A DNA stretch of 64,000 bases from contig JBEGVZ010000119.1 of assembly GCA_041178085.1 (NCBI GenBank), positions 32,001-96,000 of the forward strand, written 5' to 3'. Of this stretch, positions 16,878 to 58,830 are shown piece after piece; the stretch's first letter is position 1; each line of letters starts with the position of its first letter. The position numbers were made by a program, and so were the translations under genes. The notes under the pieces were generated by a model. It was given only the letters and a program-made list of their open reading frames with translations. It ran no database searches and was not told the origin of the DNA. Source of the DNA: Pseudomonadota bacterium. Lineage in GTDB: Bacteria; Bdellovibrionota_B; Oligoflexia; Oligoflexales; RGVZ01.

Positions 16878-19800
16878 ATGCACCTAAAACGAATCACCGT
16901 TCAGGGCTTCAAGTCCTTTGCTGACAAAATCAGCCTGACCTTTGACCGGGGCATCACTGGTGTCGTCGGTCCCAACGGTTCGGGCAAAAGCAACATCATC
17001 GACGCTGTCCGCTGGGTGATGGGCGAACAAAACGCCAAGAACCTTCGTGGTGAAAAGGCAACGGACATCATTTTTGCGGGTTCAGAACGCCGCAAGACCA
17101 TGTCCATGGCAGAGGTTTCGCTGACCTTTGACAACACCGAAGGTGCCAGCATCTGTCCGCCAGAATACCGGCACGAACCTGAAATCACCCTGACGCGCCG
17201 CCTCTACGCGGACGGCCAGCGGGAATACTTGATCAACCGTAAACCCTGTCGTTTAAAAGACATCGTCGGCTTTTTCGCGATGACCGGCCTTGGTGGGCGC
17301 AGCTACTCAATGATCCAGCAGGGTCAAGTCGACCGGATTCTTAACGCAAAGCCGGAAGACGTCCGCGAAATCCTGGAAGAAGCGGCCGGTACGCTGCTCT
17401 ACAAGCAGCGCAAGATCGAAGCGCAAAAGCGCCTGGAAGCCACCAACCTGAACCTTTCGCGCGTGACCGACATCCTGGCTGAAATTGAGCGTCAGAAGAC
17501 CAGCCTCGAGGAACAAGTCGAAAAAGCCCAGAAGTGGCAGGAAATGAGCACAAGGCTGCGGGAAGAAGAACTTCTCCTGTTCGCCCACAACTTCAAGCTG
17601 TTCAAAGACAAGCTCGACGAAGCCCAGGCAGCCCTTGCCGAGCAGACGACCAAGGAAGCGGAATTCCTGGCTGCGGTTTCACAGTACGAGGCCCGTTACG
17701 AGGAACTCCAGCAGATGCTGGCCGAAGCAGACCCTGAGCTGGCTGCCGTGGTCGAGCAGATCTCGTCTGTCCGCGAGGAGATTGCCCGCGCAGAATCTTC
17801 TGTCAGCAATGCACAGACCCGCATGGACACCGGTGCAAACCGCCTGCGCGACATCGGTCGCGAGATCCAGGAAGACGCCGCCAACCTGGCCGTGATTGAG
17901 GCCCAGGTCGAAGGGGCGACTGTGGAACTTTCCACGGCTGAAAAGCTGGCGACGGAACTTCGCCGGCAACTTGAAGACTTCCAGAATGAAGTCGACGCGG
18001 TCGATGAATCTGCCCAGGTCTTCCGCGCGAAGATCGAAGAGGGTGAAGACGAGATCCGCAACCTGACCCGCCTGATCGACACGAACAAAGTGCGTACCGA
18101 ATCGACCCAGCGCGAGATTGCGCGGGTCGAGAAATTGATCGAAGGCGAAAACACGCGGCGACAGAGCCTTAGAGAAGACGTCGCCCAGGCCCTTGCGATC
18201 GTCGAGTCGGCTCAAGGCAAGGCTGCCGGGCAGCAAGAAGGCCTGGACGTCGAAATCCGTGAAAAGCACTCGCGTGAAGCTGCGGTTGCTGCGCGTTACG
18301 CGCAAATGAAAGAAGCCAACACAACCCGCGACACACTGCGCGAGAAGTACCACGAGTCCCGTGCGCGCCTTGCGTCCTTGCAGGAACTTGATGAGCAGGG
18401 GGCGACAGACGCCTCTGCTTCACTCAACAAGCTTTACGAAACCGGCACTGTCGACCGCGCCAACGTCCCGGGGCTTTTTGCTGAGCAAATTGCCTGGAAC
18501 AGTAACTCCCAGGAACTGCCGAAGCCTGCAACGCAGGCCTTTGAACGCTGGGCGGAGCGCATCGTCATCACCGGTGTCGATGGCCTGAACCAGGTCGTAC
18601 GCGCAGCGTCCAAGGCGGAGGTGACTCCACTGCCCGTGACCTTGCTGGCGCGTTCCGTCACGCTCAAGTCAAACAGCCAGTTCGCCAGCCAGGTCGCATC
18701 CTGGGCATCTGCTTATGATGCCGTCCCGATGGGTGAGTTCCTACGGATTGACTCCAAACCTCATGCCAGCGGTGAAGCGAAGAGCGGGCTCGAGGCGCTT
18801 CTCTCCCGTCTTTACTTCGTCCCGGCACTGGCCATGGACCAGGCTACGCTTGGAGAGATGCCAGCCGGCCTGATCGCCTTTACGGCACAAGGGCTTTGCA
18901 TAACCGGTGAAGACGACTTCCTGGTGAGTGGCAAGGGCGGAGCCAGCGTCTTGAGCCGCAAGTCTGAACAAGAATCGCTGGCCAAGGCGCTGAAGCAAAT
19001 CGAAGGGGACCTCGCCCGCGCGCAGTCGCTGATCGATGAGCTGGAACTTAAAATCAACGAAGACCGCGCCGTCGTCACAGAAATCGACGGACGCCTTCAG
19101 CAACAAAATGCGACTGTTCTGGCGATCATGTCGGAACTCCAGTCCGCGCAGCAGGTTGCAACGCACAAGCAGGAGTTGCTTGCTGCACAAGAGCAAACCA
19201 TGGCGGAACTGTCCCGGCAGGACGAGCAGTTCAAGTCGGAACTGGCAAATCTGGAGACCTCGCGCACTTCGCTGGAAGAGGAACTGCGCAACGCCGAAAT
19301 CGAATTGGCAAGCATCCGCGAAGAAGCTTCAGGGCTTGAGGAAAGACGCGAGGAAGTCTTCCGCCAGAACCAGCAGCGCTCTGTCGACCTGGCCAAGTCA
19401 GAGGCCCGGGCCAATGCCCTGCGCGAAAGCTTCACCCATGCACGGGCTCAGCAAGAACTTCTGCAAAACAAGCTGAGCCGCCGTTATGAAGAACAGGCCT
19501 CCCTGCAAGGGGACATCGACGCAGCTAAAAATCTGCTGGAACACTCTCAAAACAGGATCGAGGGACTGATTGCCCAGCGCGCTGAGCTGGACGAGAAAGT
19601 CGCGGAAAAACGCGAAGCTCAAGCCGGCATCCATGAAGAACTGCGAGTGATCGACTCGCGCCTCAAAGAGTGCCGTGACCACCAGGCCAAGGTGCAAAAG
19701 AGCCTGTCGGACAAGAACGTCCAGATCGAACGTGCAACCATGGCCATCTCGAGCGTGACGGCCCAGGCCCAGGAGAAATACCAGCTCGACATCGCAACCT

Positions 19801-20696
19801 ACGAATTCACCTTTGACCCTGAATTTGAAGCAGACAAAACTGCGCGCAGCGTCGGCAGCTTGCGTGGTCGCATTGAATCCCTTGGCCCGATCAACATGAT
19901 GGCCCTGCAGGAGTTCGAAGAGCTGACCACACGCGAGAACTTCATCCGCACGCAACAGGATGAGATCAACTCCAGCATCATGCTTCTCAATGAGGCCATT
20001 GGAGAGATCGAAGTTTCCTCGAAAGACAAGTTCCTGGCGACGTTCCACATCATCAACCGCGAATTTGGCCAGCTGTTCCCGATCCTTTTCCCGAACGGGG
20101 AAGGGCACCTGGAACTGACCAACCCGGAAGATCCGCTTGGTGGTGGCGTCGAGATAATGGTCCGCCTGCCTGGCAAAAAGCAGCAGAGCATGAACCTGTT
20201 CTCGGGTGGAGAAAAAGCCCTGACGGCGATCTCACTGATCTTTGCATTGCTTAAGACCAAGCCGACACCGTTCTGCTTCCTTGACGAAGTTGATGCGCCG
20301 CTCGACGAAGCCAACGTCGGCCGCTACAACCGTGTCCTCGATGCGCTTTCGGACCAGTTCCAGTTCATCATCATTACCCACAACCGCCGCACGATGGAGG
20401 TCCTTGACACCCTCTACGGCGTGACGATGCAAGAGCCAGGCGTCTCCAGCATCGTTGGCGTGGACATGAAGAAGGACTTGCCACCTCACTTGCGCAAGGC
20501 GTTCAAGGAAGAGGGTTCAAAGGAGGCCGTCAAGCCGGCTGCTTCGGCGGCTCCGACGACGAGGATCTCTGGCGCCACGGCAGTGGACGAGGGCGAATCC
20601 AGACCAGCTTTGTCGACGGAACCTGTGGAACTTGCCCCGGACTTTGACACGGACATCCCCGTGCCGGTCGAGGCACTGCAGGGCAAACTTGAATAA
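16878..20696 (+). CDS. smc: chromosome segregation protein SMC
   Basis: GFKSF, GPNGSGKSN, SGGEK signature, FLDEVDAPLD, ITHN; long coiled coils. Confidence 0.98.
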   Translation: MHLKRITVQGFKSFADKISLTFDRGITGVVGPNGSGKSNIIDAVRWVMGEQNAKNLRGEKATDIIFAGSERRKTMSMAEVSLTFDNTEGASICPPEYRHEPEITLTRRLYADGQREYLINRKPCRLKDIVGFFAMTGLGGRSYSMIQQGQVDRILNAKPEDVREILEEAAGTLLYKQRKIEAQKRLEATNLNLSRVTDILAEIERQKTSLEEQVEKAQKWQEMSTRLREEELLLFAHNFKLFKDKLDEAQAALAEQTTKEAEFLAAVSQYEARYEELQQMLAEADPELAAVVEQISSVREEIARAESSVSNAQTRMDTGANRLRDIGREIQEDAANLAVIEAQVEGATVELSTAEKLATELRRQLEDFQNEVDAVDESAQVFRAKIEEGEDEIRNLTRLIDTNKVRTESTQREIARVEKLIEGENTRRQSLREDVAQALAIVESAQGKAAGQQEGLDVEIREKHSREAAVAARYAQMKEANTTRDTLREKYHESRARLASLQELDEQGATDASASLNKLYETGTVDRANVPGLFAEQIAWNSNSQELPKPATQAFERWAERIVITGVDGLNQVVRAASKAEVTPLPVTLLARSVTLKSNSQFASQVASWASAYDAVPMGEFLRIDSKPHASGEAKSGLEALLSRLYFVPALAMDQATLGEMPAGLIAFTAQGLCITGEDDFLVSGKGGASVLSRKSEQESLAKALKQIEGDLARAQSLIDELELKINEDRAVVTEIDGRLQQQNATVLAIMSELQSAQQVATHKQELLAAQEQTMAELSRQDEQFKSELANLETSRTSLEEELRNAEIELASIREEASGLEERREEVFRQNQQRSVDLAKSEARANALRESFTHARAQQELLQNKLSRRYEEQASLQGDIDAAKNLLEHSQNRIEGLIAQRAELDEKVAEKREAQAGIHEELRVIDSRLKECRDHQAKVQKSLSDKNVQIERATMAISSVTAQAQEKYQLDIATYEFTFDPEFEADKTARSVGSLRGRIESLGPINMMALQEFEELTTRENFIRTQQDEINSSIMLLNEAIGEIEVSSKDKFLATFHIINREFGQLFPILFPNGEGHLELTNPEDPLGGGVEIMVRLPGKKQQSMNLFSGGEKALTAISLIFALLKTKPTPFCFLDEVDAPLDEANVGRYNRVLDALSDQFQFIIITHNRRTMEVLDTLYGVTMQEPGVSSIVGVDMKKDLPPHLRKAFKEEGSKEAVKPAASAAPTTRISGATAVDEGESRPALSTEPVELAPDFDTDIPVPVEALQGKLE

Positions 20697-20983
20697 AAAG
20701 CATTGCTAATCATTTCGCTCGCGCAATGATCTTTGCGTCATGGACGTAGGGAACGTTAACAGTCAGCGTCAACGTCTCCATGGAAACGTCATAGGTGTAT
20801 TGATCCGGGCCAAGGACAGATTCTTTTCCGTCGGCAGCTATCAGGAGCTGGTATTCGTCGGTTATATACTTGGCAGGGACCTGATGGGAGCGGAACAGCT
20901 TCTTTGACGCAAACCCCTGCAACCACGCCAAACCCTTTGAATAGTCGGCCTCACACACTGAGGACCTGAAATCCGCTGCGCTG
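20350..20983. repeat. 634-bp direct repeat, left copy (smc 3' end + 3' end of VWA lipoprotein gene)
   Basis: Aligns without gaps to 27778-28411; about 22 mismatches by manual count. Confidence 0.95.
20710..20983 (-). pseudogene. 3' fragment of the VWA-domain lipoprotein gene (intact copy at 28138-29958)
   Basis: Encodes only SAAD.RSSVCEADYSKG...KIIARAK; homology stops at 20983. Confidence 0.9.
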
Positions 20984-21096
20984 GCGAGTACACTCACCCT
21001 GGCCTGGTTATCCCGAGGAATTCGTTGCATGGTCGGGTGGCTGTATTAGAAAACGAGTACACTACAATCCAATCACCGGATGTGCAAAAACCAGAT

Positions 21097-21762
21097 CTAT
21101 TGGCATCGCGCTTCAATCATACAACCGTCCTCGTCTGGGGAAACCGAATTAATGAGGCAGCGGCGATCGCTGATCGCAATCTCATCGTCCACTTTGTAGG
21201 CGCCACAACCGCCCGGGACCACCAAATACTGAATCGAAGCGTAGGGCGTCGGACCCTCCAGCGTTAAAGGGCACCGGATGATACCGACGGTCCACTCAGT
21301 CTGCTGCGTTCCCGGTGGTGAAAGGCGCTGACAATTTGAACCATGAGATTGTCCCAAAAGAAAACGATTGGCATTGTAATAGCAACATGTCTCGGTTGTA
21401 CCGTCGGTTTCTGGAACTGGTTCCCCTGGGTCGCAAAACCCGTTGACTGCGTTGATATTGTACTGATCTCGGGGGTAGATCGTACTCAGTAACCCACAAT
21501 CGCGCGGATTCTCGACAGGCAACGATAACTCAATTCTCATGGAGCCCTTTAAGCGGACACAGCAATACATATTTTCTGGCGGACCATCTGACGTTGGCTC
21601 TGGCGTACCTTGCTCAAGCAGGGACAACCGGGAATTCTCGCCCGTAGGATATTCGTTGACCTTCGTCCGTCGATCCAATGCCTCATCCACTGTGCAACCA
21701 TATATCAAACAGACACCCATAGTCCCGATCGCAAATCGGCTAACGAATCTAGAAATGGTCAC
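21097..21762 (-). CDS. Cys-rich hypothetical lipoprotein
   Basis: GGAGG RBS, GTG start, lipobox-like IYGC, many Cys including two CC pairs. Confidence 0.7.
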   Translation of the reverse strand: MTISRFVSRFAIGTMGVCLIYGCTVDEALDRRTKVNEYPTGENSRLSLLEQGTPEPTSDGPPENMYCCVRLKGSMRIELSLPVENPRDCGLLSTIYPRDQYNINAVNGFCDPGEPVPETDGTTETCCYYNANRFLLGQSHGSNCQRLSPPGTQQTEWTVGIIRCPLTLEGPTPYASIQYLVVPGGCGAYKVDDEIAISDRRCLINSVSPDEDGCMIEARCQ

Positions 21763-21915
21763 TTAACACCTCCAGAATAACCGAAATATTCAAATGCCAC
21801 CCGACGCGGATAACTAAGCCTAGGTCAGAAGCGCGACCATGCATCATGATTGCATGTTACCTGTCGACCCAACAGCTCTGGGACCAAAAGTCATCCAAAC
21901 ACGGCAGAGTCCTTT

Positions 21916-22260
21916 TCAATCTCCAATCGTCTGAAGGGGACCACTAACTGGGTCAGCTGTCGAAAAGTCAGACGCCAATCCACGCGTATCCGTAAAATTG
22001 CAAGCTGGCGAGGGAAGGTTGGGCGCGGTTGAACCAAGCAAGTGGCATTCCAGCGTCTGGTGACAATGCCCATTAGTAAAAATTTGAAACATCACCTTAC
22101 AGCTCTCTCTCTGGCCCGTCTCGGTGCATCTTTCAAAAATTTGATACAATCTCTCTCGGCACGGGCCGAGATAAGACGTCGGCCCTGACGCAAAACCAAG
22201 GTCCACGATCGACGCAAGTAACGTACATAGAACAAATGCAAAAACCACGAATCTCACCAC
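21916..22260 (-). CDS. small Cys-rich secreted hypothetical protein
   Basis: GAGGGAGG RBS, GTG start, hydrophobic signal peptide, six Cys in the mature part. Confidence 0.65.
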   Translation of the reverse strand: MVRFVVFAFVLCTLLASIVDLGFASGPTSYLGPCRERLYQIFERCTETGQRESCKVMFQIFTNGHCHQTLECHLLGSTAPNLPSPACNFTDTRGLASDFSTADPVSGPLQTIGD

Positions 22261-22410
22261 GTTTGCCCTCCCTCGCGTCGTTAAAACAATAATCTCGGGC
22301 TGACCGTACGGTTACTGGGACCCCAGAGTCCAAAACGTCTTTCCACTCTGACGTCAGCGGTCGGCAAAGCAAAAAACTTAATAAGGCTTTTTCAGTGACA
22401 CTAAATCTCG

Positions 22411-22702
22411 CGCCATTCCCGGATGTTATCGTGTTCGCCCATTACACTTTATCAAGTGTAGTACGGTCTCCTGTTTGCTGAGGTTTACACGCGGGTGCCA
22501 TCGACCTGGTGGTTGAGCGCTATTTAGTCGCCCGGGATTTGTAGGAAATTGAAGCGCGGTTTGGATTCTATGGAACCCACCCTACGCCCCCGCCAATTTC
22601 GTTGGCCCATCCGTTACGCACCGGTATTTCGGGCTTCCCTAGCTATCCAACACCGCCATCATTCGACCAATCCCTGAGCGTCCCCATTTTTTAGTAAACA
22701 CT
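22411..22702 (-). mobile_element. IS91-like element end remnant 1 (putative oriIS, no transposase)
   Basis: Shares blocks with 24774-24952 (CGCCATTCCCGGAT; ~85-bp ACGCACCGG...GTAAACACT); the minus strand reads GCGCTTCAATTTCCTAC, resembling IS91/ISCR oriIS. Confidence 0.6.
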
Positions 22703-22885
22703 CGGTGTCTCCATGCTTAATTGATTCTCGACATACGGCGATCACCTAGCTCCTCACACATCAAAATCCCAGAAGCCGTACCCCCCGTATTGTCTCATCG
22801 GACCATTGCACAGGGTTCACTCTTCTCTGGAGCTATCTAAGATCGATGAATTTTTGATGAATCCAGAAAATATTATCAGATTCCC

Positions 22886-22913
22886 TAAAGTTGGCATGGA
22901 CTCATACCGAATG
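22886..22913 (+). promoter_or_regulatory. putative sigma28 (FliA) promoter of the serine protease gene
   Basis: TAAA-N17-CCGA (TAAAGTT...ACCGAATG). Confidence 0.5.
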
Positions 22914-23014
22914 ATTGACCGGATAACAAACGAAGAGGCCTCAAAGAGCAATTGAATGGAAAATTTTTGGTTGAGACCGAGAGCAAGGGTTTCGCAGAAA
23001 CGGAGGGTCAAGTT

Positions 23015-24508
23015 ATGACTCAAAAAATCCGACTGCTCGTCGCGTTGCTTGTCATCTCTGCGTGCGATGCAGATTCAGGGATGACCGGACGCAGCGCCCA
23101 GCCGTCTAGGGTAACAGGGAATCCAACAACGGGTGCTCTTTGGATTGTTGACGGCGAGGAAATCAAAACCGTGGACGATGGCGTTGGGGCTTTGATCAAA
23201 TTTTATGACCCAGCCCCCCAGCCACTAAACACCATGCCGCCCCGAAATCAGCCTATGACGCCGCCAAATAAGTCCATTCTGACCGTCTGCTCGTCTTCGG
23301 AAATTCCCGGGAGAATTAAAGAAAATGGACGCTGCCTTTTGACAGCAGCCCATTGCGTCCAGGAGGAGTGGGGAACTCTCACAAGAGATTTTTTTTATCG
23401 GCAACATTACTACGCCAGGTTCATCGACGGTAAGGGCGACAACCTGGACGAGATTCAAAAGGGTCATGTCAACCGCTCAATCCGAGTCAAGCCTCACCCT
23501 TATTACCGCTTGTCCGTGCAGCAAGTCACATCCGAACCTTATTCCAACATGGACCTGGCATTGGTTTGGCAACGTCCGTATGCATGCAAGCTGGAAAAAG
23601 GTCGCGATTGGGGACACAAATGTGAAGAGAAGGATCCCAATGCAGTCAAAATTCAATGGCACCCTCTTGTGCTCGCATTTGACCGTACAAAGGAAGGACA
23701 ATTGCTGGATCATGTCGGCTACGGCAGATCCAGAATAGATGACGATGATTTCAGCACATCAGGCATTAAGAGACGCGGGCAAACAATTTTGAAAGACGTT
23801 TATGAATCCGACGTAGGTTTGGGAGCTTTCTATATTTATGGAACAATCGAAGGAAAGTCACAAATAGTCGAGAAAGGCGACAGCGGTAGTCCGATTTTAG
23901 TCAATCGGAAAGTTGTTGGTGTAGTAAGTGCGCGACATGAGGCGGGAGAGCGAGGTACCGCCCTCTTTCCGTTTCTCAACCATCAATTCGTAGCAAACGA
24001 ACGAGTATTCGAGCCGGCAAATCAGAAATGGCATTGGGGTGAAGCGGCTAAATTCTGTCGCCCAAAACCCCTCTTATCTTTGGATGTTCAGGTCTTTGCA
24101 GAGGGTTCAGATTCTGCGCAAGTCGTAACCGATTTCAATCGCGGCAACATCGACGTCGAAATTATCGACCCTGTTGAGGAATACGAGAAACGTGCCGGCA
24201 CCTGTGACAAGACCGAGGAGCCAACACAACTATGTTTAGTCGATTCTGTCGTTGAGGAAATCACACTAAAAGCAAAGCCGAAGAATAACTTCCGCTTCAT
24301 ACGGTGGGTATCCAGAATCCCCGGCGCAGAATTATGCCCCTGTGGGAATAGCACATCGACCGAGTGTCGAATCAACACCAACAACATCTCATGGAGGCAA
24401 GAGAACGAAGGGATTCAGTGCGCTGCACAGTTTGATATTGCATCTAGTCCACCGGGATCATGCGATATCCCGTCGCTTTCTGGCACGAGATGCGGTCTCC
24501 AAGACTGA
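23015..24508 (+). CDS. S1 (chymotrypsin-fold) serine protease lipoprotein with C-terminal InlB B-repeat-like domain
   Basis: GGAGG RBS; lipobox ISAC; triad motifs LLTAAHC, MDLAL, GDSGSP; ITLKAKP..FRFIRW C-terminal module. Confidence 0.85.
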   Translation: MTQKIRLLVALLVISACDADSGMTGRSAQPSRVTGNPTTGALWIVDGEEIKTVDDGVGALIKFYDPAPQPLNTMPPRNQPMTPPNKSILTVCSSSEIPGRIKENGRCLLTAAHCVQEEWGTLTRDFFYRQHYYARFIDGKGDNLDEIQKGHVNRSIRVKPHPYYRLSVQQVTSEPYSNMDLALVWQRPYACKLEKGRDWGHKCEEKDPNAVKIQWHPLVLAFDRTKEGQLLDHVGYGRSRIDDDDFSTSGIKRRGQTILKDVYESDVGLGAFYIYGTIEGKSQIVEKGDSGSPILVNRKVVGVVSARHEAGERGTALFPFLNHQFVANERVFEPANQKWHWGEAAKFCRPKPLLSLDVQVFAEGSDSAQVVTDFNRGNIDVEIIDPVEEYEKRAGTCDKTEEPTQLCLVDSVVEEITLKAKPKNNFRFIRWVSRIPGAELCPCGNSTSTECRINTNNISWRQENEGIQCAAQFDIASSPPGSCDIPSLSGTRCGLQD

Positions 24509-24773
24509 CATCTCGTTTTTTGACCTTTGCGTTATAAACGGGATTGTAGAATTAACGAAGCACCTTGAGACCAGCTCGCGGCAATCTTCCAGGATCATGA
24601 AGGGAGAAGCTAACGGGACTTTAACAAAACTCCCTGAGGTTGCTATCATTGTAGTTAAGAGGCCGAGAGTTGTCTTTGAGGAGTTTAACCCTAAGAACAA
24701 GGTGAAAACTCGGTAGCAGTCGCCAGAGGCGGCGATTAAGTTTATATAAATCAAAAAACCAAAAATTTTCCTT

Positions 24774-25242
24774 CGCCATTCCCGGATATTCGCCGTCACT
24801 CCAAGACGAGATGCGTCATCGTCTCCCGCGGCCGATTGCAGAAAATCAAAGCGCGGCTTGGGTTCTAACGCACCGGTATTTCGGGCTTCCCCAGCTATCC
24901 AACACCGCCATCATTCGACCAATCCCTGAGCGTCCCCATTTTTCGTAAACACTGCCTCACCGGCACCATTTTTCAGAGCGCATACCGCCACCAATTGAGC
25001 AGAGAAATATTCCCAGCCTGGCGACGGCGTCTGATCCGTGCTGGCATCGACTGCAGGATCAGCGTCAAGCCCCATCAACATGGGCTTATAGTAAGACGAG
25101 GCGCATGCGGGGGATCACTGGCAAGTCCGACGTGACGCAGGTAGCGCCGCGCCTCATTCAGGTGGCAGATTGCCGCTACGACGCACAGTTCTCCGCCGCA
25201 AGTGCAGCGGGTGATGTCGATGTTAAAAACACGGGATAAAAG
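24774..25242 (-). mobile_element. IS91-family transposase 3' remnant 2 with downstream end region
   Basis: LLSRVFNIDITRCTCGGELCVVAAI...RYLRHVGLASDPP, typical of the IS91/ISCR Y2 transposase C-terminus; degenerate oriIS-like GCGCTTTGATTTTCTGC near 24838-24854. Confidence 0.75.
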
Positions 25243-25416
25243 CCCTGATTCGCAAATCGCTATTGCGGCTATTGGGCCTATTGAAAAGAAAAAAAAATTT
25301 CCCTGTGACATCCATCACGAATTGAATTCCAAGAGATGAATTTGGTTGATCTGGCGTAGCTAATCCAATATCAATCGCGCGCTTTCTTAATTAAAAAAAC
25401 GTCATAAAAGGATCCG

Positions 25417-25938
25417 ATGATGAAAGCTTTCCTACGCATCCTCTCTTGTTTTGCTGTCTCCGTTAGCGTTCTAGCCTGCGGTGAAATCCGGCCCGTGGCG
25501 ACCTTGTCTGAAAGCAGCGCCATCGGAGCAAGTGCCGGCGAATTGGCCCAGAAATTGGAAGCTATCATGGAGGGGACCCTTTACTACAGTGAGGCCGACT
25601 ATCCATGGACGGCTTTCCATTCTAGGGTCGCTGTCTCGAAACTTTATGGCGAAAATGAGTTGCGCCTTGCTCTTCGCGTACCAGCAGGCGCACCGATTCG
25701 AGTTTACTCAGCAAACGATACTCGTGAAATCTGGCAATCCCTGCGAGAAGATAATTCCAGCGATCCGCAAGCCGCGACCCGTTATGGAAAACTGCACTCT
25801 GTAATGCATGAAAACCTGCAGGATGTCCGTTTTATAAAAATCGGAAAGGGAGACAGCGGCGCACTGGATTTTTTCGTCGTGGGACGCGACGCGCGCGGAT
25901 TCCTGATCGGGGTGAAAACCATCAAAGTTGAGACCTGA
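25417..25938 (+). CDS. nuclease A inhibitor (NuiA)-like lipoprotein
   Basis: EGTLYYSEADYPW, ENLQDVRFIKIG, DFFVVGRD..G.LIGVKTIKVET match NuiA family motifs; lipobox VLAC. Confidence 0.8.
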   Translation: MMKAFLRILSCFAVSVSVLACGEIRPVATLSESSAIGASAGELAQKLEAIMEGTLYYSEADYPWTAFHSRVAVSKLYGENELRLALRVPAGAPIRVYSANDTREIWQSLREDNSSDPQAATRYGKLHSVMHENLQDVRFIKIGKGDSGALDFFVVGRDARGFLIGVKTIKVET

Positions 25939-25963
25939 TCCTAGTTTCCTAGAATCTTTGCCT

Positions 25964-25993
25964 AAGGCTGCCAGTTGATCCTGGCGGCCTTTT
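25964..25993 (+). terminator. Rho-independent terminator
   Basis: AAGGCTGCCAG-TTGATC-CTGGCGGCCTT followed by a short T run. Confidence 0.7.
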
Positions 25994-26259
25994 CGCTATC
26001 ATCGGACGAAATTCGATGTTGCCGCCTCACAGAGAAATGCCAACAGTCGTACCTACCTCATGGCCGAGTGGATAAAGGCCACGCACAAGAGTGAAAAAGG
26101 CACCATGACCGAATCCACTTTGGAGCGGTCGCCTTTCCGAATAAACCCATTTAGTTCGGGTTGTTAACCTCGTGCACGCCCTGTTTCTAGGCAAATCATT
26201 CTCGCCCTAATATTCGGTCAAACCATCGAAATCACAGCTAAAGGCGCCATGAAGCAGCC

Positions 26260-26275
26260 TGGTACACGAGCTGCA
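26260..26275 (+). promoter_or_regulatory. putative sigma54 promoter
   Basis: TGGTACA-CGAG-CTGCA with correct GG/GC spacing, ~50 bp upstream of the lipoprotein pair. Confidence 0.45.
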
Positions 26276-26323
26276 TCCACAGGCCAATAGTGCGAATTGA
26301 CTTATCGAAGGAGAAACAAAGTC

Positions 26324-26770
26324 ATGAAAAAAATTGTTTTTGTTTTGGGCACATTAGCTGTGGCTGCATGCGGGACAAATCTAGATCAAAGCAATTTGGC
26401 GACCCAGCGTGACACAAAATCGCAAGCCAAGAAGGAAAAAATTGCAAAAATTCCGGGGCTTGTTGGCCAAGATCGACAAGGCCGGCTGGAATTCTACGGG
26501 ATCGATCGTAAGGAGCAAACCATCGCGATACGCGTACCGGTAGTCGACGGATTTTTCACCCAAACTGACATCAAAAAAATGATGGATTGCAGTGTTAAAA
26601 GGCAAACGCACGCCATCACAGTCGAAGTTCACAAGAGCACGCAAACTGGCGTACCCACTGGCATCCCAGGGGTGACGATCGAAACTCACATGCCGAAATA
26701 CAAAAATATTCGCTGTGAAAAAATGCCAGGTTTTCTCGCTGAATGGCGACTGGTAGTCAACGGCCGATAA
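26324..26770 (+). CDS. hypothetical lipoprotein
   Basis: AAGGAG RBS; MKKIVFVLGTLAVAAC lipobox. Confidence 0.75.
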   Translation: MKKIVFVLGTLAVAACGTNLDQSNLATQRDTKSQAKKEKIAKIPGLVGQDRQGRLEFYGIDRKEQTIAIRVPVVDGFFTQTDIKKMMDCSVKRQTHAITVEVHKSTQTGVPTGIPGVTIETHMPKYKNIRCEKMPGFLAEWRLVVNGR

Positions 26771-26831
26771 AATTGCTCGCACGACAATTGAACTGAAACA
26801 AATAATCCAAATTTTTTTAGAGGAGAGATTT

Positions 26832-27245
26832 ATGCGTAGTTTTCTGGTAACAGCGATGATGGTTTCCGCGGGCGGATTTATAGCATGTAAAAGCGGTTCT
26901 CAAGGGGATCTTTCCTTTTCTGCCAATGCGGCAGACGCTTTGAAATGCAGAGCCCAAATTGAAACTGTACAAGACATCCACCTTGATAACCGAGGTAAAA
27001 CCCTGCAATTGGAACCGCAGGGTGGCGAACCCTTGCTGTACGCAGCGAACGACGCGGGCATTTCATATAATGCGTCGGTCGACGACGAAGCAGGCGTGAT
27101 TGATTTCCAGATTTTCGACAAGACACCCAAGACGGGATTCAAAGCTACATCCAAAGGATTCGTTCCAGACGGCAAGTACCGGCGTAACAGCAGCAAGCTG
27201 GAAGTTACAAACTCCAAGGGCCGTTTCACGATTTATTGCGAGTAG
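26832..27245 (+). CDS. hypothetical lipoprotein
   Basis: GAGGAG RBS; FIAC lipobox; beta-rich; Cys near each end. Confidence 0.75.
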   Translation: MRSFLVTAMMVSAGGFIACKSGSQGDLSFSANAADALKCRAQIETVQDIHLDNRGKTLQLEPQGGEPLLYAANDAGISYNASVDDEAGVIDFQIFDKTPKTGFKATSKGFVPDGKYRRNSSKLEVTNSKGRFTIYCE

Positions 27246-27256
27246 CAGTCGCTCGT

Positions 27257-27287
27257 CAGGGCAGGCACCAAACAGTGCCTGACCCTG
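27257..27287 (+). terminator. hairpin after lipoprotein gene
   Basis: CAGGGCAGGCAC-CAAACA-GTGCCTGACCCTG; no clear U tract. Confidence 0.45.
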
Positions 27288-27416
27288 GCACAGTGAAAGC
27301 CTTGACGCGCGTCGCACCAGGCCAATACCTGCGAATGATATCTTCATCTGCGGATGCCCCGAAAGAGCGCAATAAAATCGGAGCACCAGAAGCAGCGGTA
27401 ACATTGATTTATTCAG

Positions 27417-27777
27417 GGCCTGGCGAGATCATCTGGTCCGTGCTGGCATCTACTGCAGAACCGGCATCAAACTCCATCACCACCGGCTTATAATGAGGCA
27501 GGACGCATGCCGGGGATCACTGGCAAGTCCGACGTGATGAAGGTAGCACCGCGCCTCATCCTGTTCACAGATTGCCACTACGGCGCGCAACTCTCCGCCA
27601 CAGGCGCAGCGAGTGATGTCGACATTAAAGACACGCGAGAGAAGATTCGCCCAGCTCGACCCATTAAGATCGTCTAGACTAGATATCTTTTCAAGAAACT
27701 CCAGCGGGATGATAAGCAGGGGGGACGTCCCATCACAGGCGATTGAAGCTTGATCTGCTGCATTTTTTGGATTTTGA
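27417..27777 (-). mobile_element. IS91-family transposase remnant 3 (internally deleted)
   Basis: DGTSPLLIIPLEFLEKISSL fused to SWANLLSRVFNVDITRCACGGELRAVVAI...HVGLASDP; homologous to ~25015-25242; abuts the right repeat. Confidence 0.78.
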
Positions 27778-28124
27778 CGGACCAGTTCCAGTTCATCATC
27801 ATTACCGACAACCGCCGCACGATGGAGGTCCTTGACACCCTCTACGGCGTGCCGATGCAAGAGCCAGGCGTCTCCAGCATCGTTGGCGTGGACATGAAGA
27901 AGGACTTGCCACCCCACTTGCGCAAGGCGTTCAAGGAAGAGGGTTCCAAAGAAGCCGTCAAGCCAGCTGCTTCGGCGGCTCCGACGACGAGGATCTCTGG
28001 CGCCACGGAAGTGGACGAGGGCGAATCCAGACCAGCTTTGTCGACGGAACCTGTAGAACTTGCCCCGGACTTTGACACGGACATCCCCGTGCCGGTCGAG
28101 GCACTGCAGGGCAAACTTGAATAA
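27778..28124 (+). pseudogene. smc: smc 3' fragment
   Basis: Duplicates the last ~115 codons of smc; H-switch ITHN changed to ITDN; no real start. Confidence 0.9.
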
Positions 28125-28411
28125 AAAGAATTGCTAATCATTTCGCTCGCGCAATGATCTTTGCGTCATGGACGTAGGGAACGTTAACAGTCAGCGTCAA
28201 CATCTCCATGGAAACGTCATAGGTGTATTGATCCGGGCCAAGGACAGACTCTTTTCCGTCGGCAGCGATCAGGAGCTGGTATTCGCTGGCCACATACTTG
28301 GCAGGGACCTGATAGGAGCGAAACAGCTTCTTTGATGCAAACCCCTGCAACCACGCCAAACCCTTTGAATAGTCGGCCTCACACACTGAGGACCTGGAAT
28401 CCGCTGCGCTG
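27778..28411. repeat. 634-bp direct repeat, right copy
   Basis: Aligns to 20350-20983 at offset 7428. Confidence 0.95.
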
Positions 28412-29958
28412 AAAAGGATTTTAGACTCCGCTGATGGATCTACTGCGCATCCAGAGGCATTTCCTGCCCCCGTGTTGCCGATCACCGAGACTGTAAAATT
28501 TCCAGGGCCAAAAAGGTTTACGGCCCTCGTTCGCAAGAGTGCTGGTAAATCACCGGCGTTGGTCACGCCATCATAGTTTATGAATCCGCCTTTTTGCTGG
28601 CCGTACCATGTGCTGAACCATACTTCGCCACTGAAAATGTCGTCTGGATAGACCTCCTTGAAATAATCGACAACCGATGGATAGGTCTTTCCCTGGTAAA
28701 TGAACGGCGCTGGATTGATGTTATTCCATTCGACGGGCACCGACGATCCGACCTGGTGCGACCATTGAAGCACCGTGTTGCATGTGTCGTTGTCACTCAA
28801 ACGATATTTCCCGGATTGAATCTCTGCGGCGTAGGTTTGCCTGAAATACTGCAAGTAATCTGCCCTCTGTTCGGTTGTGCACGCTTCATGGGAATTCATT
28901 GGTTTCGATGGATCACAAAGTGAATTGATCTTGCACCGTTTTTGTAGCCTTTGGAGGCTAGGCTGGCGGTCGCAATAGCCGTCATTGACAGTGCTGTCGC
29001 ATTTTGCCTGATAATTCATGGTCACGACGGTTTGCAAACTCCTGGCAATGGCATTGGTGTTTTGGTAGGCAAGCACGGTTTGCTTGTTGGCGTACGGACA
29101 GGGCAGTAACCTGCTTGTCTGGTCCTCATCCGAAATGATCAGGAACGCAACGCGGTCCTTGCTGGCAAAGATTTTATTCGGACCATCGTTATCCAGCATG
29201 GCTGCCATGGCGCAAAGAGGCATCTCTTCGGGATTTCCGCGATCTCCCAGGATGATCTCTTGCTTCAGCTTCGACCGCACGGCCGCGAAATCCTGCGCCG
29301 ACATGTTGTCGGTAAATTTAAGGGTCCCGTCCTGGCTGGTGAATCCGGACTGGTTGATGACGAATTTTGTCATGGCCTCTTCCGGGACGAAATCGAGCTC
29401 GTTGGAAGTTGCCGTGATCCAGATGCCACCCTTCCTGACCGTCGGGATGAAGGCAAGGGACGGTTTCAATGTGTCAGAAAGGATCTCGGAATAGTGAAGT
29501 CCAGGCCAGGTTGCGAAGGTGTTACCCAGGGGAAGATGCTTCAGGACATAATTGTTCAGGTAATTTGTCCCAAAAAACTTGAAGGTCCGGTTGAAGATTG
29601 ATGAAGAGTAAAGATAAACGGTCACATTCTTACCGCGGACGCTTTCCATGGCTGAATCAAGGGCCTTCGCCAAGAGCTGTTGCTTCGGCACCATGGACGA
29701 AGAGTCGTCAACAATCAGGACCAGCTTCAAGGGCTCTGACGTGTCATCAAAGCGCAAGTTCAGGGCAAAATCTGGCGCCTTCGCCGGGGCAACTTGCGGA
29801 CGGTCAAGCGGGCGCCCCGTTATCGCGCTTTCGGTCTGTTGGACGATTGCATGATTGTCGGGGCCGTTTGAGTCCGTAATGCCTGAAAACTTAGCGATGC
29901 GAGAACAGGCTGTCGTCGCCAGCAGGCTGGCGATCGGAATTAAGAACTCGAATCGCAT
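28138..29958 (-). CDS. VWA/MIDAS-like lipoprotein
   Basis: Lipobox TTAC; LIVDDSSSM (DxSxS), LIISDED, SVCEADY; alternative start at 29985. Confidence 0.75.
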   Translation of the reverse strand: MRFEFLIPIASLLATTACSRIAKFSGITDSNGPDNHAIVQQTESAITGRPLDRPQVAPAKAPDFALNLRFDDTSEPLKLVLIVDDSSSMVPKQQLLAKALDSAMESVRGKNVTVYLYSSSIFNRTFKFFGTNYLNNYVLKHLPLGNTFATWPGLHYSEILSDTLKPSLAFIPTVRKGGIWITATSNELDFVPEEAMTKFVINQSGFTSQDGTLKFTDNMSAQDFAAVRSKLKQEIILGDRGNPEEMPLCAMAAMLDNDGPNKIFASKDRVAFLIISDEDQTSRLLPCPYANKQTVLAYQNTNAIARSLQTVVTMNYQAKCDSTVNDGYCDRQPSLQRLQKRCKINSLCDPSKPMNSHEACTTEQRADYLQYFRQTYAAEIQSGKYRLSDNDTCNTVLQWSHQVGSSVPVEWNNINPAPFIYQGKTYPSVVDYFKEVYPDDIFSGEVWFSTWYGQQKGGFINYDGVTNAGDLPALLRTRAVNLFGPGNFTVSVIGNTGAGNASGCAVDPSAESKILFSAADSRSSVCEADYSKGLAWLQGFASKKLFRSYQVPAKYVASEYQLLIAADGKESVLGPDQYTYDVSMEMLTLTVNVPYVHDAKIIARAK

Positions 29959-29993
29959 CCGGAATTTTAGGCTTCCTCTCAGCATGTAACGGA

Positions 29994-30021
29994 GTATCGG
30001 ATCCGGGGCGACCGATGCTTA
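29994..30021 (-). promoter_or_regulatory. putative sigma28 promoter
   Basis: TAAG-N17-CCGA (TCCGATAC) on the minus strand. Confidence 0.5.
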
Positions 30022-30075
30022 CGGGTAATTCGGCTTTACGATTAACCATCCATTATCATTGATGATATTAGACCA

Positions 30076-31395
30076 TCAGAGAGGCTTGTAGGGCTGAAAG
30101 AACTGGTTGAGTCCAAGGGACACACCTGATGTCCTGATTTCGTTGCTCCGACCCCAGCCATAATCGATTCGAAACACCAGCCGGTGAACCTTCGGAATGG
30201 CAATGCGTACACCAGCACCAGCCGAACGAAAGACGTCTTTTTTCGCGTCAGCAAAATCGTCACCTGCGATGCCGGCGTCCGTGAACAGGACTCCTGCCAG
30301 CTTCACAGCGCGTGAAGTAAACACTTCTGAACGCAGTTCGAGGTTGCCGTAGGCGGCAAAGGGGCCCTGACGAATACCGTCTGGAAAACCCCGCACGGAG
30401 TCAAAACCGCCTAGATGAAACACGTTGGAAATCGTCGGCGCCCCGGCAGACTGCATGTAAGCATGTGCTGCCATGTTGAACGTCTGCACCGGGCGCAGGA
30501 AGGCAAATCCCTCGACTTCCGCATAACGAGAATCACCGGGGTTTTCGACACCCGCCGAACGGGACACGCCCCACTTTAAACTTGCACGGACCCCGTCAAG
30601 CAACTGGTCCTCGACTGCCATATTGTCAAACACTGCCGACAGCAGAAGACGGTTCTCAGACGATGCGTCACCTGCCGGTAAATCGATTCCGGTCAAGGGA
30701 CTGCCTTCGATCGAGGGACGGCCGTCGCGCCTGCTCAAAAACTCAAACCCAGCCTGTAAAATCAGCGGATCCAGCGGACCGGTAATAGAATCAATCAACG
30801 AAAAAAGATGCTGGGCGCGGACAAAAGAGCTGTCAAAACCGAGTACCCCCGTTTCGTTTCCTGCTGCGTCATAAAAAGTCCGGCGGCGAAAATCCCGCCA
30901 TAGCTCAATCCCGGCAGAACTCCTGCCCTGTCCAGCGCGCGGAAGTTTTGCCCAGAGCGTGAATCCCGCCGGCGCACTGCCATATTTTTTGGTTTCCGCA
31001 CCCAGGGTGACCAGGCGGCCAAGAGCGTGGGTTTCATAAACCCCGGCGACCAGCAGGGGAGTACCGCCGCCGTAAGCGCCACGCACGACCGGGATGGTTG
31101 TCCATTTTTCTTCCACGTCGATCACGAGGCGACCGTCCGCTAGACGGACGTCCACGCGCAGGAAAACATCCGTAGTCAGGAGTTTCGTGCGGATACGCTC
31201 CAGGTCAGCGTTCGCCAAATCGGCTGGCAAGGCCAATCCAAGATAATGTTTGAGCCAATCCGGATCGGTGCGGGAGATTCCGCGAAATTCAAAATCACGG
31301 GCAACTTCCCCGTAGCAGGAACCCTGCGCAAACAAGAACAGGAAAAATGCGCAGGCATAAGGCAGCGCGCTGCGCCAGCAAGAAAGCCAGCTCAC
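30076..31395 (-). CDS. Omp85/BamA-TamA family outer-membrane protein with a single POTRA
   Basis: Signal peptide; POTRA-like FRGISRT...IDVEEKW; lid motif GGFDSVRGF; RIDYGWG. Confidence 0.8.
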   Translation of the reverse strand: MSWLSCWRSALPYACAFFLFLFAQGSCYGEVARDFEFRGISRTDPDWLKHYLGLALPADLANADLERIRTKLLTTDVFLRVDVRLADGRLVIDVEEKWTTIPVVRGAYGGGTPLLVAGVYETHALGRLVTLGAETKKYGSAPAGFTLWAKLPRAGQGRSSAGIELWRDFRRRTFYDAAGNETGVLGFDSSFVRAQHLFSLIDSITGPLDPLILQAGFEFLSRRDGRPSIEGSPLTGIDLPAGDASSENRLLLSAVFDNMAVEDQLLDGVRASLKWGVSRSAGVENPGDSRYAEVEGFAFLRPVQTFNMAAHAYMQSAGAPTISNVFHLGGFDSVRGFPDGIRQGPFAAYGNLELRSEVFTSRAVKLAGVLFTDAGIAGDDFADAKKDVFRSAGAGVRIAIPKVHRLVFRIDYGWGRSNEIRTSGVSLGLNQFFQPYKPL

Positions 31396-58000: not shown

Positions 58001-58830
58001 CGGGGGGAAATAGTAACGCAGACCGCATTGCGCGATGGAATGGCACCTCCTGGAATCCGCTTGGAACGGGTGTAAGCGCTGGAGAAGTTTATGCCATCGC
58101 GATTTCGGGAAGCGATGTTTATGTCGGAGGATCCTTCTCAAATGCTGGCGGAAATGCCGATGGTGACAATATCGCCCGATGGGACGGCACAAATTGGAAT
58201 GCGCTCAGCAAGGGCATGATTTCAGGAGTAAGAGCTCTCGCTGTATTGACTGACGGTATCTACGCCGGCGGTAACTTCCTGGACATCAAAAGTTCTGTGG
58301 CACGCTGGGACGGAAGTGCCTGGCAAGCTATCGGCACTGGCATGAACAACGATGAAGTTTTTGCCATCGGGAATTCTGGTAGCAATATCTTCTTTGGAAG
58401 TAGCCGTGGCTTTGCGACCTTGAAACCGGGGGGTTCCACAGGAGCCCGCGCCTATTCGGCGGTCACCGACAACGCCGGTAACCTGCACCTTGGCTGGGCC
58501 ACGGAAACAGGCGACATCGTGGGCCGGATCTTCGATGGCACTGGCAACACCTGGGGATCATCTACTTCGCTTTCTGGCATAAATGCACTTCGGGCGATCC
58601 TGTCGCACGACACGGCGTCAGACGATGTCTTCGCAATATGGGGCCAGGATGGCGCAATCAAATACAAGCGCTACAACGGCTCCTGGGACACCTCTGCAAG
58701 CAACCTCACGTCATCGGGAGCGATCTATCCCGTGTGCCATGCGGAAAGTGGTGGAAGCGCCATCGCCTGCTTATGGACGACCTACTCCAGCAGTATTTAT
58801 GAAATCACGGGTGGGGTAGTCACACCCTGA
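55072..58830 (+). CDS. large surface lipoprotein: Ig/FN3-like domains plus beta-propeller repeats
   Basis: LVSC lipobox; FN3-like LDWSAGSDN..YFNVLVMDAAGNK; 14 repeats of ~49 aa; start may be 55102 or 55123. Confidence 0.8.
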   Translation: MNARFRHRYRMDSLGRTMMVLGFFFHASGLVSCGRASIKPTVAFGPPMASLEDGGDVAKVNAMLPLEGAYVGATEAAALTISGVCITRSVAVTISITGSGIKQTVACDELSGGFSAKIDISSFPDGAVEITTSYLSNLVSTHPIFQFVRTVIKDATPPSNGTFTQSKPLASTGFLLDWSAGSDNISPPEMLQYYVCSGPSSTAIDTVAECESATQEMNWIANTRTLAVTGKSASTTLYFNVLVMDAAGNKAGYSGKSQKTKGDTSISALASRRGSQRYTFFDSVNQRHWAFYKDGAVIRSMYSTDNVDWTLSSTINVDTREFSLTYKSIGGVGYAFVVMEENSWDITIRRGTLGATSVTFAAPVTVYDGSGVSDRYHNPTIALDDSNVWVAASHFTGFNFTLKARESTNAASGDLSAWQAASSIGTPSTLGKDAALVPKGGGAMYLLSQQENLVEGFVFNGTTWSAANTGGDYDWFTIAGFGGAEGSEVTVMRVAADGLYVGGNFGNAGGNGKADAIARWDGTSWHALGNGLNGQVLAIAVSGSDVYVGGGFTDAGGDSKADYVARWDGANWHSLGTGLNNSVHAIAVSSEGIYAGGTFTDAGGNANADAIARWDGSNWNALGTGLNDTVETIALSGSDVYAGGDFSNAGGNADGDFIARWDGTGWHPLGTGLNARVEVIEILYGMIYVGGAFTDAGGLSNADYIARWAYTGWDALGNGLNDVVFDIKIVGGSLYAVGNFTDAGGVANADRVAMWNGAVWSAIGTGIPNPPVFAVAVIGTYVYVGGNFVYDSATAETMMRWNGSSWERIGTGMTDQINAVAVSGSNVYVGGAFTDAGNNPDADYIARWDGTAWQALNTGLNNPVYSISISGTDVYVGGEFTDAGGDNDADRIARWTGSAWVPLLTGLNSTVYAIAISGSDVYVGGDFTDAGGNSNADKISRWNGSAWSALASGVNASVRAIAVSGSNVYAGGSFTDAGGNSNADRIARWNGTSWNPLGTGVSAGEVYAIAISGSDVYVGGSFSNAGGNADGDNIARWDGTNWNALSKGMISGVRALAVLTDGIYAGGNFLDIKSSVARWDGSAWQAIGTGMNNDEVFAIGNSGSNIFFGSSRGFATLKPGGSTGARAYSAVTDNAGNLHLGWATETGDIVGRIFDGTGNTWGSSTSLSGINALRAILSHDTASDDVFAIWGQDGAIKYKRYNGSWDTSASNLTSSGAIYPVCHAESGGSAIACLWTTYSSSIYEITGGVVTP
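56530..58400 (+). repeat. 14 tandem ~147-bp coding repeats
   Basis: LGTGLN..V.AIA.SGSDVYVGG.FTDAGG...AD.IARWDG..W units; boundaries approximate. Confidence 0.85.

Follow-up and report, generated by a model that had tools for sequence, protein, structure and literature searches.

A 634-bp direct repeat enclosing a 6.8-kb accessory block, made up mostly of predicted surface-lipoprotein genes and broken ISCR pieces, was found in the variable gap between smc and an omp85-family gene of the 64-kb window (the whole stretch of DNA analyzed). In the explanation that we favor, with a probability of ca. 0.55, the block is an island in this gap, and an illegitimate join followed by a homologous crossover between conspecific strains left the repeat as a scar. 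ISCR activity probably helped to assemble the island earlier. We regard the locus as a further case of a familiar mode of gene acquisition, not as a new capture machine.

The duplicated block and its flanking genes

The two copies of the repeat, both on the plus strand at positions 20350-20983 and 27778-28411, align without gaps and are identical at 612 of 634 positions (96.5%, 22 substitutions), the longest run without a mismatch being 73 bp. A megablast self-comparison of the genome retrieved no other within-contig repeat of 200 bp or more at such identity. Copy 1 consists of the 3′ end of the intact smc gene, the intergenic gap and a 90-codon 3′ stub of a convergent vWA-like lipoprotein gene; copy 2 consists of an smc stub (27778-28124) and the 3′ end of the intact vWA-like gene. 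Both ends of the repeat fall within coding sequences, in two different genes, one of them accessory. Six accessory genes and three co-oriented remnants of ISCR-like transposase elements lie between the copies. The layout of repeat, cargo, remnants and repeat reported in a preliminary description of this DNA was thus reproduced, as was its statement that the block contains neither an integrase nor an intact transposase. Two tyrosine recombinase genes are present in the genome, both on contigs other than that of the block, and the 64-kb window has no tRNA genes. A dedicated att site was considered and rejected, since neither an integrase gene nor a tRNA target with short att repeats is found in the region.

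The left flank, smc (16878-20696, plus strand; TIGR02168, 872.7 bits, above cut-off), is a core gene that was matched in 39 of the 41 genomes searched (G000 included). The vWA-like gene (28138-29985, minus strand) encodes a predicted lipoprotein and is accessory: of 94 further genomes from the order, 3 gave a match, and the protein collection contains two homologs. Because the sole Pfam match, to VWA_CoxE, is weak (E 0.17), the name vWA should be taken as a lead only. The smc/vWA junction, proposed earlier as the landing homology, is not a core landing pad, since a search with the window's vWA-like gene as query found it in none of the 6 other same-genus genomes. The omp85-family gene (30076-31395, minus strand) is conserved and bounds, on the right, the variable site, the smc-omp85 gap, which is empty or differently loaded in relatives and carries no IS pieces in them. 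The locus comparison that the preliminary description had recommended therefore shows a site that varies between relatives and also between populations.

Changes at conserved residues are present in both stubs, and both full genes are whole. The smc stub carries H1168D and T1183P, at positions where His and Thr are kept in 19 of 19 relatives. The vWA-like stub (20710-20983, minus strand, codons 526-615) is probably decaying, since Y558H alters a residue on which both homologs agree.

ISCR-like remnants and the lipoprotein cargo

The three remnants, R1, R2 and R3, are all on the minus strand, and each has ISCR/IS91-type counterparts at other places in the genome (78-86%). Their limits were refined by nhmmer to 22538-22703 (R1), 24833-25246 (R2) and 27400-27754, with an envelope to 27776 (R3). 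R1 is the ori-proximal end of an ISCR-like element and has no transposase sequence, R2 is a transposase C-terminal remnant with a decayed oriIS (45-bp deletion), and R3, which extends over 27400-27777 and abuts the smc stub, is an internally deleted, frameshifted transposase remnant without an oriIS; the earlier assignment of oriIS and transposase parts to the remnants has to be changed accordingly for R1 and R3. The left limits given previously, 22411 and 24774, mark a 17-bp motif of the R1 and R2 flanks (22411-22427, no strand assigned; 16 of 17 positions shared with 24774-24790) that lies outside the IS end proper. This motif has only two sites in the genome within one mismatch, and none of 2000 shuffles reached its score.

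A consensus oriIS-like motif is located in R1 at 22541-22557, and homology stops at 22539, where loose contig ends were seen in three metagenome runs. The 17-mer of this oriIS is identical in the copy on contig C18 and in genome G002, and by hand count 14 of 20 positions are identical to the ISCR27 oriIS as printed in PMC8894482. The oriIS lies ca. 230 bp beyond the transposase stop in the copy on contig C56, compared with 236 bp in ISCR27. Positions 24868-24953 of R2 and 22616-22702 of R1 are 96.5% identical and form an 87-bp repeat around the protease gene.

A Pfam search with the R1-R3 window fragments alone gave no match. However, R2 and R3 share 74-85% amino acid identity with transposases on contigs C80 and C56, which exceed the Y2_Tnp cut-off (PF04986), and it is through these copies that homology to HUH rolling-circle transposases is established; the remnants are IS91/ISCR-like and in one orientation, as originally described. 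The genome's fuller ISCR copy scores 84 bits on Y2_Tnp, contains the HUH motif and is closer to ISCR clade Ia (E 5.9e-59) than to IS91 (E 6.7e-10), though it is ca. 39% identical to the nearest plasmid transposases and far under the clade Ia cut-off. It fits the ISCR/IS91 family (Y2_Tnp PF04986, Zn_Tnp_IS91 PF14319, NCBIfam NF052416), while the window holds fragments only and no intact transposase. The preliminary description had suggested looking for an intact IS91 copy elsewhere in the genome; a near-complete transposase gene is indeed present on C80, but it is split across two frames and cut by the contig end. A 5′ boundary is shared by two C80 copies and G002, and a terIS-like equivalent was not detected in the window. 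R1 and R3 could be imagined as halves of one split element: they occupy profile positions 363-526 and 36-319, respectively (nhmmer), but the inner 87 bp of R1 are R2-like. An outward promoter in R1 is unsupported, since the number of sites found (8) is close to that in shuffles (7.1 ± 2.4) and none is inside R1.

Co-oriented ISCR pieces also flank accessory genes at other loci of the same genome, and the main pieces are co-oriented in all five of its multi-piece clusters and in G002. The array pattern is therefore not peculiar to this site. The G002 array contains IS-to-IS repeats only, with no flanking core-gene repeat.

The cargo starts with g1 (21097-21762, minus strand), a Cys-rich predicted lipoprotein, and g2 (21916-22260, minus strand), a small Cys-rich protein with a hydrophobic N-terminus, neither assigned to a family. 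The remaining four genes are on the plus strand and encode predicted lipoproteins: one with a trypsin-like protease domain (23015-24508; PF00089, E 3.5e-6), for which there is one distant relative at 27% identity; a NuiA-like protein (25417-25938; PF07924, E 1.6e-15), with matches in 2 of 94 further genomes from the order; lp1 (26324-26770), with no family; and lp2 (26832-27245), which weakly resembles repeated segments in four large proteins. Atlas searches with lp1 and g1 gave no match of at least 0.9 and no TM above 0.5. The block has no nuclease neighbor for the NuiA-like gene, and effector-immunity pairing is not evident. A lipobox, defined by a PROSITE pattern, is present in five cargo genes, and g2 has a hydrophobic N-terminal segment only, which agrees with the previous claim that all six carry a signal peptide or lipobox. 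The same pattern is found in 232 of 2508 ORFs genome-wide (9%), in 8 of 40 ORFs with GC below 0.50 and in 0.5% of shuffled N-termini.

Origin of the repeat

The copies contain 21 coding differences, 11 of which are synonymous, as opposed to 24-29% expected (p 0.005-0.02). Six of nine are synonymous in the smc part; the vWA part alone, with five of twelve, does not reach significance (p 0.14-0.25). Since there is a synonymous excess, the copies behave as alleles, and from their sequences they look like alleles of different strains. Copy-2 variants at 20486, 20525 and 20537 occur in a native smc contig of metagenome run X4 (record 27), and that at 20486 occurs in five of six same-genus genomes.

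The R3|smc junction at 27777/27778 lies mid-transposase, with no bases shared between the joined sequences. In this ISCR-like family, oriIS is followed by an AATC-like tetranucleotide, but neither junction of the repeat coincides with this tetranucleotide or with an oriIS; the closest AATC was not retained and lies 6-9 bases beyond the vWA break. Successive rolling-circle capture, as originally envisaged, thus finds no event to point to, the oriIS signature being absent from both junctions. Homologous integration, the other part of that proposal, is likely the origin of the repeat. The duplicated block had also been placed on the terIS side; the repeat is indeed on the ter side, with cargo beyond oriIS, but it abuts a decayed mid-transposase break and not a terIS region.

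In our favored scenario, the accessory vWA-like gene of one lineage would first have been severed when the island inserted within or next to it, giving the order smc, vWA 3′ stub and cargo, the latter probably gathered through recombination between co-oriented ISCR copies, in keeping with the shared orientation of such pieces in the other clusters. A fragment running from smc codon ~1158 to mid-R3 would then have been closed end to end, creating the R3|smc junction without microhomology, and would have entered a chromosome with an intact smc-vWA segment by a single crossover. By a mirror route, an smc-vWA fragment of such a strain could have been joined to R3 via homology-facilitated illegitimate recombination (HFIR), with the same product. 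This second step would need neither transposase nor integrase. The outcome is that smc and the vWA-like gene are both whole and that both stubs decay. A single illegitimate junction with little or no microhomology, as expected for a single crossover or HFIR, is seen at 27777/27778, and the derivation of the copies from two chromosomes, expected for both as well, is indicated by the synonymous excess and by alleles common to another population. In E. coli, 56 of 60 clones carried such a duplication, measuring 109-950 bp in the 14 sequenced, and the duplications were attributed to a single crossover of a re-circularized fragment (PMC3240628). Genes similar to comEC and dprA are present in the genome, but they are no proof of competence, because 10-11 of 14 control genomes match as well.

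Two points speak against the single-crossover explanation: an ISCR1-type circle accounts for the gene order just as well, and the oriIS of R1 looks intact. An ISCR transposase acting in trans on this oriIS would produce a circle (oriIS, cargo, R3, smc stub, vWA stub, g1, g2) that integrates by homology at smc-vWA, in the way that ISCR1 circles use the 3′ conserved segment in class 1 integrons, a possibility that we regard as unlikely. The order of parts matches exactly; ca. 82-100 bp of the ori end are enough in IS91 and ISCR1 (PMC13181058, PMC13023784), and R1 carries the consensus oriIS. The near-complete C80 gene could be a transposase source, although its split and truncated state counts against this, allelic copies are compatible with an inter-strain circle, and the 87-bp R1/R2 repeat around the protease gene resembles the ISCR1-gene-ISCR1 units described in PMC7707992. 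However, replication from oriIS proceeds in the rightward direction only at this locus, so that the smc stub could not be captured unless an IS was fused inside smc, and the fusion is mid-way in a decayed transposase, whereas the smc stub is 97% intact. The outer flank of the R1 oriIS looks inherited and not like a fresh circle closure, because it shares the 17-bp motif at 22411-22427 with the R2 flank, and the AATC-like tetranucleotide is missing from both repeat junctions. No joint closed at oriIS, as in a circular form, was present among the contig joints listed.

Four metagenome runs (X1, X2, X4 and X12) of 13 listed were compared. Both novel junctions lie inside contigs of X1, a separate assembly of what is probably the source sample and hence not independent support. 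The X1 contig depths, which carry a warning that they are not copy numbers, are 36 for the collapsed repeat (the value expected from two copies at 25 each) vs. 26-27 for its flanks, 18 for g1-g2, 19.8 for the protease gene, 24.8 for the nuiA block, and 15.8 and 10.7 for two vWA-end haplotypes. This unevenness exceeds simulated sampling noise, so that the sample may mix strains. It bears on the improbable case that the structure is an assembly product in which two strains, or a chromosome and a free circle, were threaded through the 634-bp homology. The genome consists of 136 contigs, the X1 region forms a loop through the collapsed repeat, and the vWA-end haplotypes sum to 26.5, about single-copy depth; the simulated chance of a depth of 15.8 or less was 0.0045, and that of 10.7 or less was under 1 in 20000 draws. 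Against such an artifact, both junctions are internal to X1 contigs, the collapsed part is above single-copy depth, and 150-bp reads, if used (read length is not on record), could phase across the 73-bp longest identical run. A library bias could have depressed both low-depth contigs, since they cover the same sequence, and the warning attached to the depths applies here too.

In X4, a contig carries nuiA-lp1-lp2 fused, at 27402, to what is left of the 5′ part of the vWA-like gene, which means that a lineage with this gene broken beside cargo exists. The joint is within 3 bp of the R3 truncation, a coincidence that the single-crossover model leaves unexplained. In this lagoon population, part of the cargo lies beside an apparent duplicated omp85 end. 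In X12, smc, the vWA-like gene and omp85 are covered at 97-100% and none of the six cargo genes is, which hints at an empty allele; since no contig joins across the site, X12 was not counted as evidence, nor was X2, where cargo pieces had a depth below 5 and no junction. Joints in X12 and X4 that skip the protease gene were set aside, as the intervening sequence is flagged 'not known'; they probably belong to other IS copies. Metagenome scans gave no matches to the exact smc-tail pattern and 147 stretches, none confirmed, with NuiA-like protein patterns, and neither scans nor runs yielded a donor or empty-site chromosome of the same species as one contig.

It is highly improbable that a site-specific recombinase encoded elsewhere integrated the block, the repeat then being an extended att-like duplication by which the target genes were made whole again. 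Elements are known that restore the 3′ end of the gene they target, and the two tyrosine recombinase genes could be candidates. Yet they lie outside a region that has no integrase or tRNA, the repeat ends inside the coding sequences of two genes, one accessory, and a second smc-end match was found in none of 55 other genomes with a match (among the matches listed, best three per genome). The omp85 stub in X4 further suggests that repeat endpoints differ from strain to strain.

Relation to known systems

As described in PMC7707992 and PMC13023784, ISCR1 complex class 1 integrons show the same order of repeat, cargo, oriIS, IS and repeat (the Toleman model), an ISCR-type oriIS and duplication of a pre-existing chromosomal segment. 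Unlike them, the present locus has no integron (intI1, 3′ conserved segment) and no intact transposase, and its homology block adjoins a dead transposase, deleted and frameshifted, at a point mid-way along that gene. What is duplicated here joins a core gene end to an accessory gene end, its copies are alleles diverged by 3.5%, and the cargo encodes predicted lipoproteins, not resistance functions. The features shared with a single crossover of a re-circularized fragment, or HFIR, are one join with little or no microhomology and one homologous crossover, and the 634-bp duplication compares with 109-950 bp in E. coli; the substrates there were engineered, whereas here the events are inferred from one natural product with the donor unseen (PMC3240628). 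Vibrio cholerae T6SS immunity arrays and Rhs orphan arrays are likewise integrase-free, with a conserved anchor and stubs of displaced genes, and were proposed to arise via HFIR (PMC5361080). The present array differs from them in its interspersed IS remnants and lack of evident effector-immunity pairs.

As best explained, the locus is a clear natural case of additive gene gain that left core genes intact. A bolder and rather doubtful idea is that ISCR-like ends act as non-autonomous, integrase-free collectors of surface-lipoprotein genes and that the smc-omp85 gap is repeatedly reloaded, each round duplicating the end of a neighboring gene (smc/vWA here, omp85 in X4). If so, complex class 1 integrons would have an environmental counterpart on the chromosome, one that varies the cell surface and does not spread resistance. 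ISCR elements would then be seen in a native role, and rolling-circle capture and homologous rescue could be followed at this locus in wild populations. A literature search, with most subscription journals outside its coverage, found no report of ISCR elements beside lipoprotein genes in Bdellovibrio-like bacteria. Here such elements lie beside lipoprotein genes in an uncultured freshwater bacterium, whereas the neighbors in the literature found are almost only resistance genes.

Anatomy and cargo of the repeat-flanked block

The window (contig C119, 32001-96000) belongs to a 3.0-Mb draft genome (136 contigs, 96% complete), whose best-matching sequencing run is a freshwater metagenome. An ungapped direct repeat of 634 bp with 22 substitutions is present at positions 20350-20983 (copy 1) and 27778-28411 (copy 2). 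Copy 1 contains the end of the intact smc gene and a stub of a convergent 615-aa predicted lipoprotein gene (the vWA-like gene, 28138-29985, minus strand), while copy 2 contains an smc stub and the end of the intact lipoprotein gene. The GC content is 0.47-0.51 between the copies and 0.55-0.60 outside. The repeat, the six ORFs and the three IS remnants of the preliminary description were all recovered; the feature is real and was well described.

A lipobox is present in five of the six ORFs between the copies and a hydrophobic leader in the sixth; Pfam assigns only two, the protease and the NuiA-like protein. Since only 232 of 2508 ORFs genome-wide, and 8 of the 40 ORFs that make up the lowest GC class, show the same lipobox pattern, the enrichment of the block in lipoproteins is real, yet the genome has two further lipoprotein-dense windows. 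Elsewhere in the window, the plus-strand gene at 55072-58830 encodes a predicted exported protein of 1252 aa that contains many tandem repeats, each of ~42-47 aa, its N-terminus being similar to those of Kelch-repeat proteins on contig C18. Another exported protein of 721 aa, encoded at 49911-52076 (minus strand), is the second vWA-like one and carries a DxSxS motif.

The smc-omp85 gap in relatives and populations

The region following smc was fetched from 14 of the 38 other smc-matching genomes; 12 of the contigs extend as far as omp85, the right flank. The gap was shorter than 200 bp in three of these 12 and held 1.0-2.8 kb of other genes, often including a predicted lipoprotein gene, in nine; the two open-ended contigs have yet other genes after smc. 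No match to the cargo, the vWA-like gene or the IS pieces of the window was found at this site in the 14 relatives. With this query, the vWA-like protein was matched in three of 94 other genomes of the order and in none of six same-genus genomes, and the NuiA-like protein in two of 94 (all drafts). The gap being so variable and the vWA-like gene so seldom matched, the landing site is the smc-omp85 gap, with the vWA-like gene itself an earlier cargo, rather than the smc/VWA junction proposed previously as landing homology. At the same site, genome G006 (contig C82, L032:1381-5490) carries an apparent rhodopsin gene together with genes for the synthesis of carotenoid and retinal, an identification made by eye; a homologous block lies at another locus of the source genome (C76:12446-16393).

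Logan contigs of four of the 13 listed sequencing runs were used to examine populations. In run X1, probably the source of the assembly, each novel junction is crossed by a contig (20939-22670 and 24914-27837), and depth is 36 in the collapsed repeat versus 26-27 in the flanks. Over the cargo, depth is lower and varies (18, 19.8 and 24.8; haplotype contigs, 15.8 and 10.7), in excess of sampling noise, so library bias or a strain mixture is present. That the linear arrangement is a product of assembly appears improbable. Contig-end duplications in the source genome, of 3.3-3.8 kb with 92-94% identity (C12:1-3805 with C36; C30:1-3287 with C31) are possibly strain variants binned together.

Run X4, from a lagoon, yielded a 3026-bp contig (record 28) whose ends overlap. 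It consists of a 3′ piece of omp85 (30119-30249), 25021-27402 (part of remnant R2, nuiA, lp1 and lp2), a 5′ remnant of the vWA-like gene (29429-29783) and 30003-30148; a separate contig runs on into native omp85. The junction at 27402 is within 3 bp of the truncation point of remnant R3. We infer an allele loaded in another way, in which a duplicated omp85 end surrounds some of the same cargo, although the contig might instead reflect a free circle or two strains. This second duplicated gene end is an intriguing lead.

ISCR-like remnants in the block and the lineage

Remnants R1, R2 and R3, all on the minus strand, resemble DNA of contigs C18, C56, C80 and C133. The fullest copy, on C80, matches Y2_Tnp and, weakly, Zn_Tnp_IS91, split over two frames, and fits the model of ISCR clade Ia better than that of IS91. 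The IS91/ISCR-like assignment thus holds through homology to Y2_Tnp-bearing copies, on the ISCR side. The copies share an end point, 22539 in R1, and the same break-off base was found for other copies in three sequencing runs. The terminal motif is identical at 14 of 20 positions to the oriIS (rolling-circle origin) of ISCR27 and lies ~230 bp past the transposase stop codon, much like the 236 bp stated for ISCR27 (PMC8894482). From end point and motif, R1 (22538-22703) is an ori end without transposase; R2 (24833-25246) retains a C-terminal part of the transposase next to a decayed ori; R3 (27400-27777) is a deleted, frameshifted remnant without ori, whose upstream break adjoins the smc stub. 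The oriIS of ISCR1 carries outward promoters (PMC6218425, PMC13393415); a promoter scan found none in R1.

The main pieces are co-oriented in all five multi-piece clusters of the source genome, the exception being one inverted 83-bp piece on C56, and likewise in a cluster of genome G002. Single accessory genes are bracketed by such pieces: predicted lipoprotein genes on C18 and in G002 but, on C80 and C56, genes for cytoplasmic AAA_14/DUF4143 ATPases and a pair of HTH genes. In G018, a lone ori end lies between two predicted lipoprotein genes. The bracketing pattern is therefore a feature of the accessory genome of the lineage and not of the smc-omp85 site. An array of exported cargo, as first described, fits the six window genes, but the cytoplasmic genes demonstrate that ISCR-bracketed cargo is not limited to exported proteins. 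The pieces probably mattered at an earlier stage of the island's history.

On C18, a low-GC island (60000-70783) holds several predicted lipoprotein genes, one bracketed by ISCR pieces (68994-69659), and an acyltransferase-like gene; two large Kelch-repeat exported proteins are encoded directly downstream of an oriIS, and an OmpA-domain gene lies between two IS pieces (L001:2414-8523). The ATPase genes are at L003:1269-2738 (C80), where the 5′ end of the element flanks one of them as a direct repeat (104 bp, 94%), and at L002:796-4640 (C56), where the gene pair with an HTH_3 domain follows oriIS. In G002 (L089:8009-13457, contig C2), co-oriented pieces alternate with exported-protein genes beside a chemotaxis operon, and no core-gene duplication was found at that array.

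Origin of the repeat

Among coding differences between the repeat copies, 11 of 21 are synonymous, versus 24-29% expected if unselected (p 0.005-0.02); the excess is due to smc (6/9) and not to the vWA part (5/12). Three synonymous variants of copy 2 are present in the native smc contig of X4. The smc stub has lost a Thr and a His, the latter a residue of the ATPase H-loop, both kept in 19 of 19 relatives. Together, these patterns indicate that the copies are alleles, which accumulated differences as functional genes of separate strains before the stubs decayed.

In the ISCR1 model (PMC7707992, PMC13023784), homologous recombination rescues a circle that contains the element, captured genes and part of a homology block. 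The arrangement here is geometrically identical, and the analogy drawn earlier is exact to that extent. However, replication from oriIS proceeds only toward the transposase start (PMC13181058), rightwards here, and capture of the smc stub would therefore have required an element fused within smc. The fusion observed lies midway along a long-dead transposase gene, oriIS and its adjacent tetranucleotide are absent from both repeat junctions, and a unique 17-mer is common to the outer flanks of R1 and R2. Capture of cargo and smc stub by an ISCR circle is thus unlikely, though less so than an assembly product.

We favour, at roughly 55%, a single crossover of a closed conspecific fragment or a mirror-image event of homology-facilitated illegitimate recombination (HFIR); every step of the mechanism is inferred, while anatomy, homologies and allele patterns were observed directly. 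The island would already have cut the vWA-like gene in a donor strain; a fragment from this strain would have been joined at its two ends and taken into the chromosome through one crossover, and the mirror event would create the same single new junction. Requiring only one, this path is shorter than the ISCR circle. Such products were common in E. coli conjugation experiments (PMC3240628), and for the immunity arrays of Vibrio, likewise integrase-free, the related mechanism is proposed (PMC5361080). Integration by an integrase acting in trans is very improbable. The feature is a further instance of known processes.
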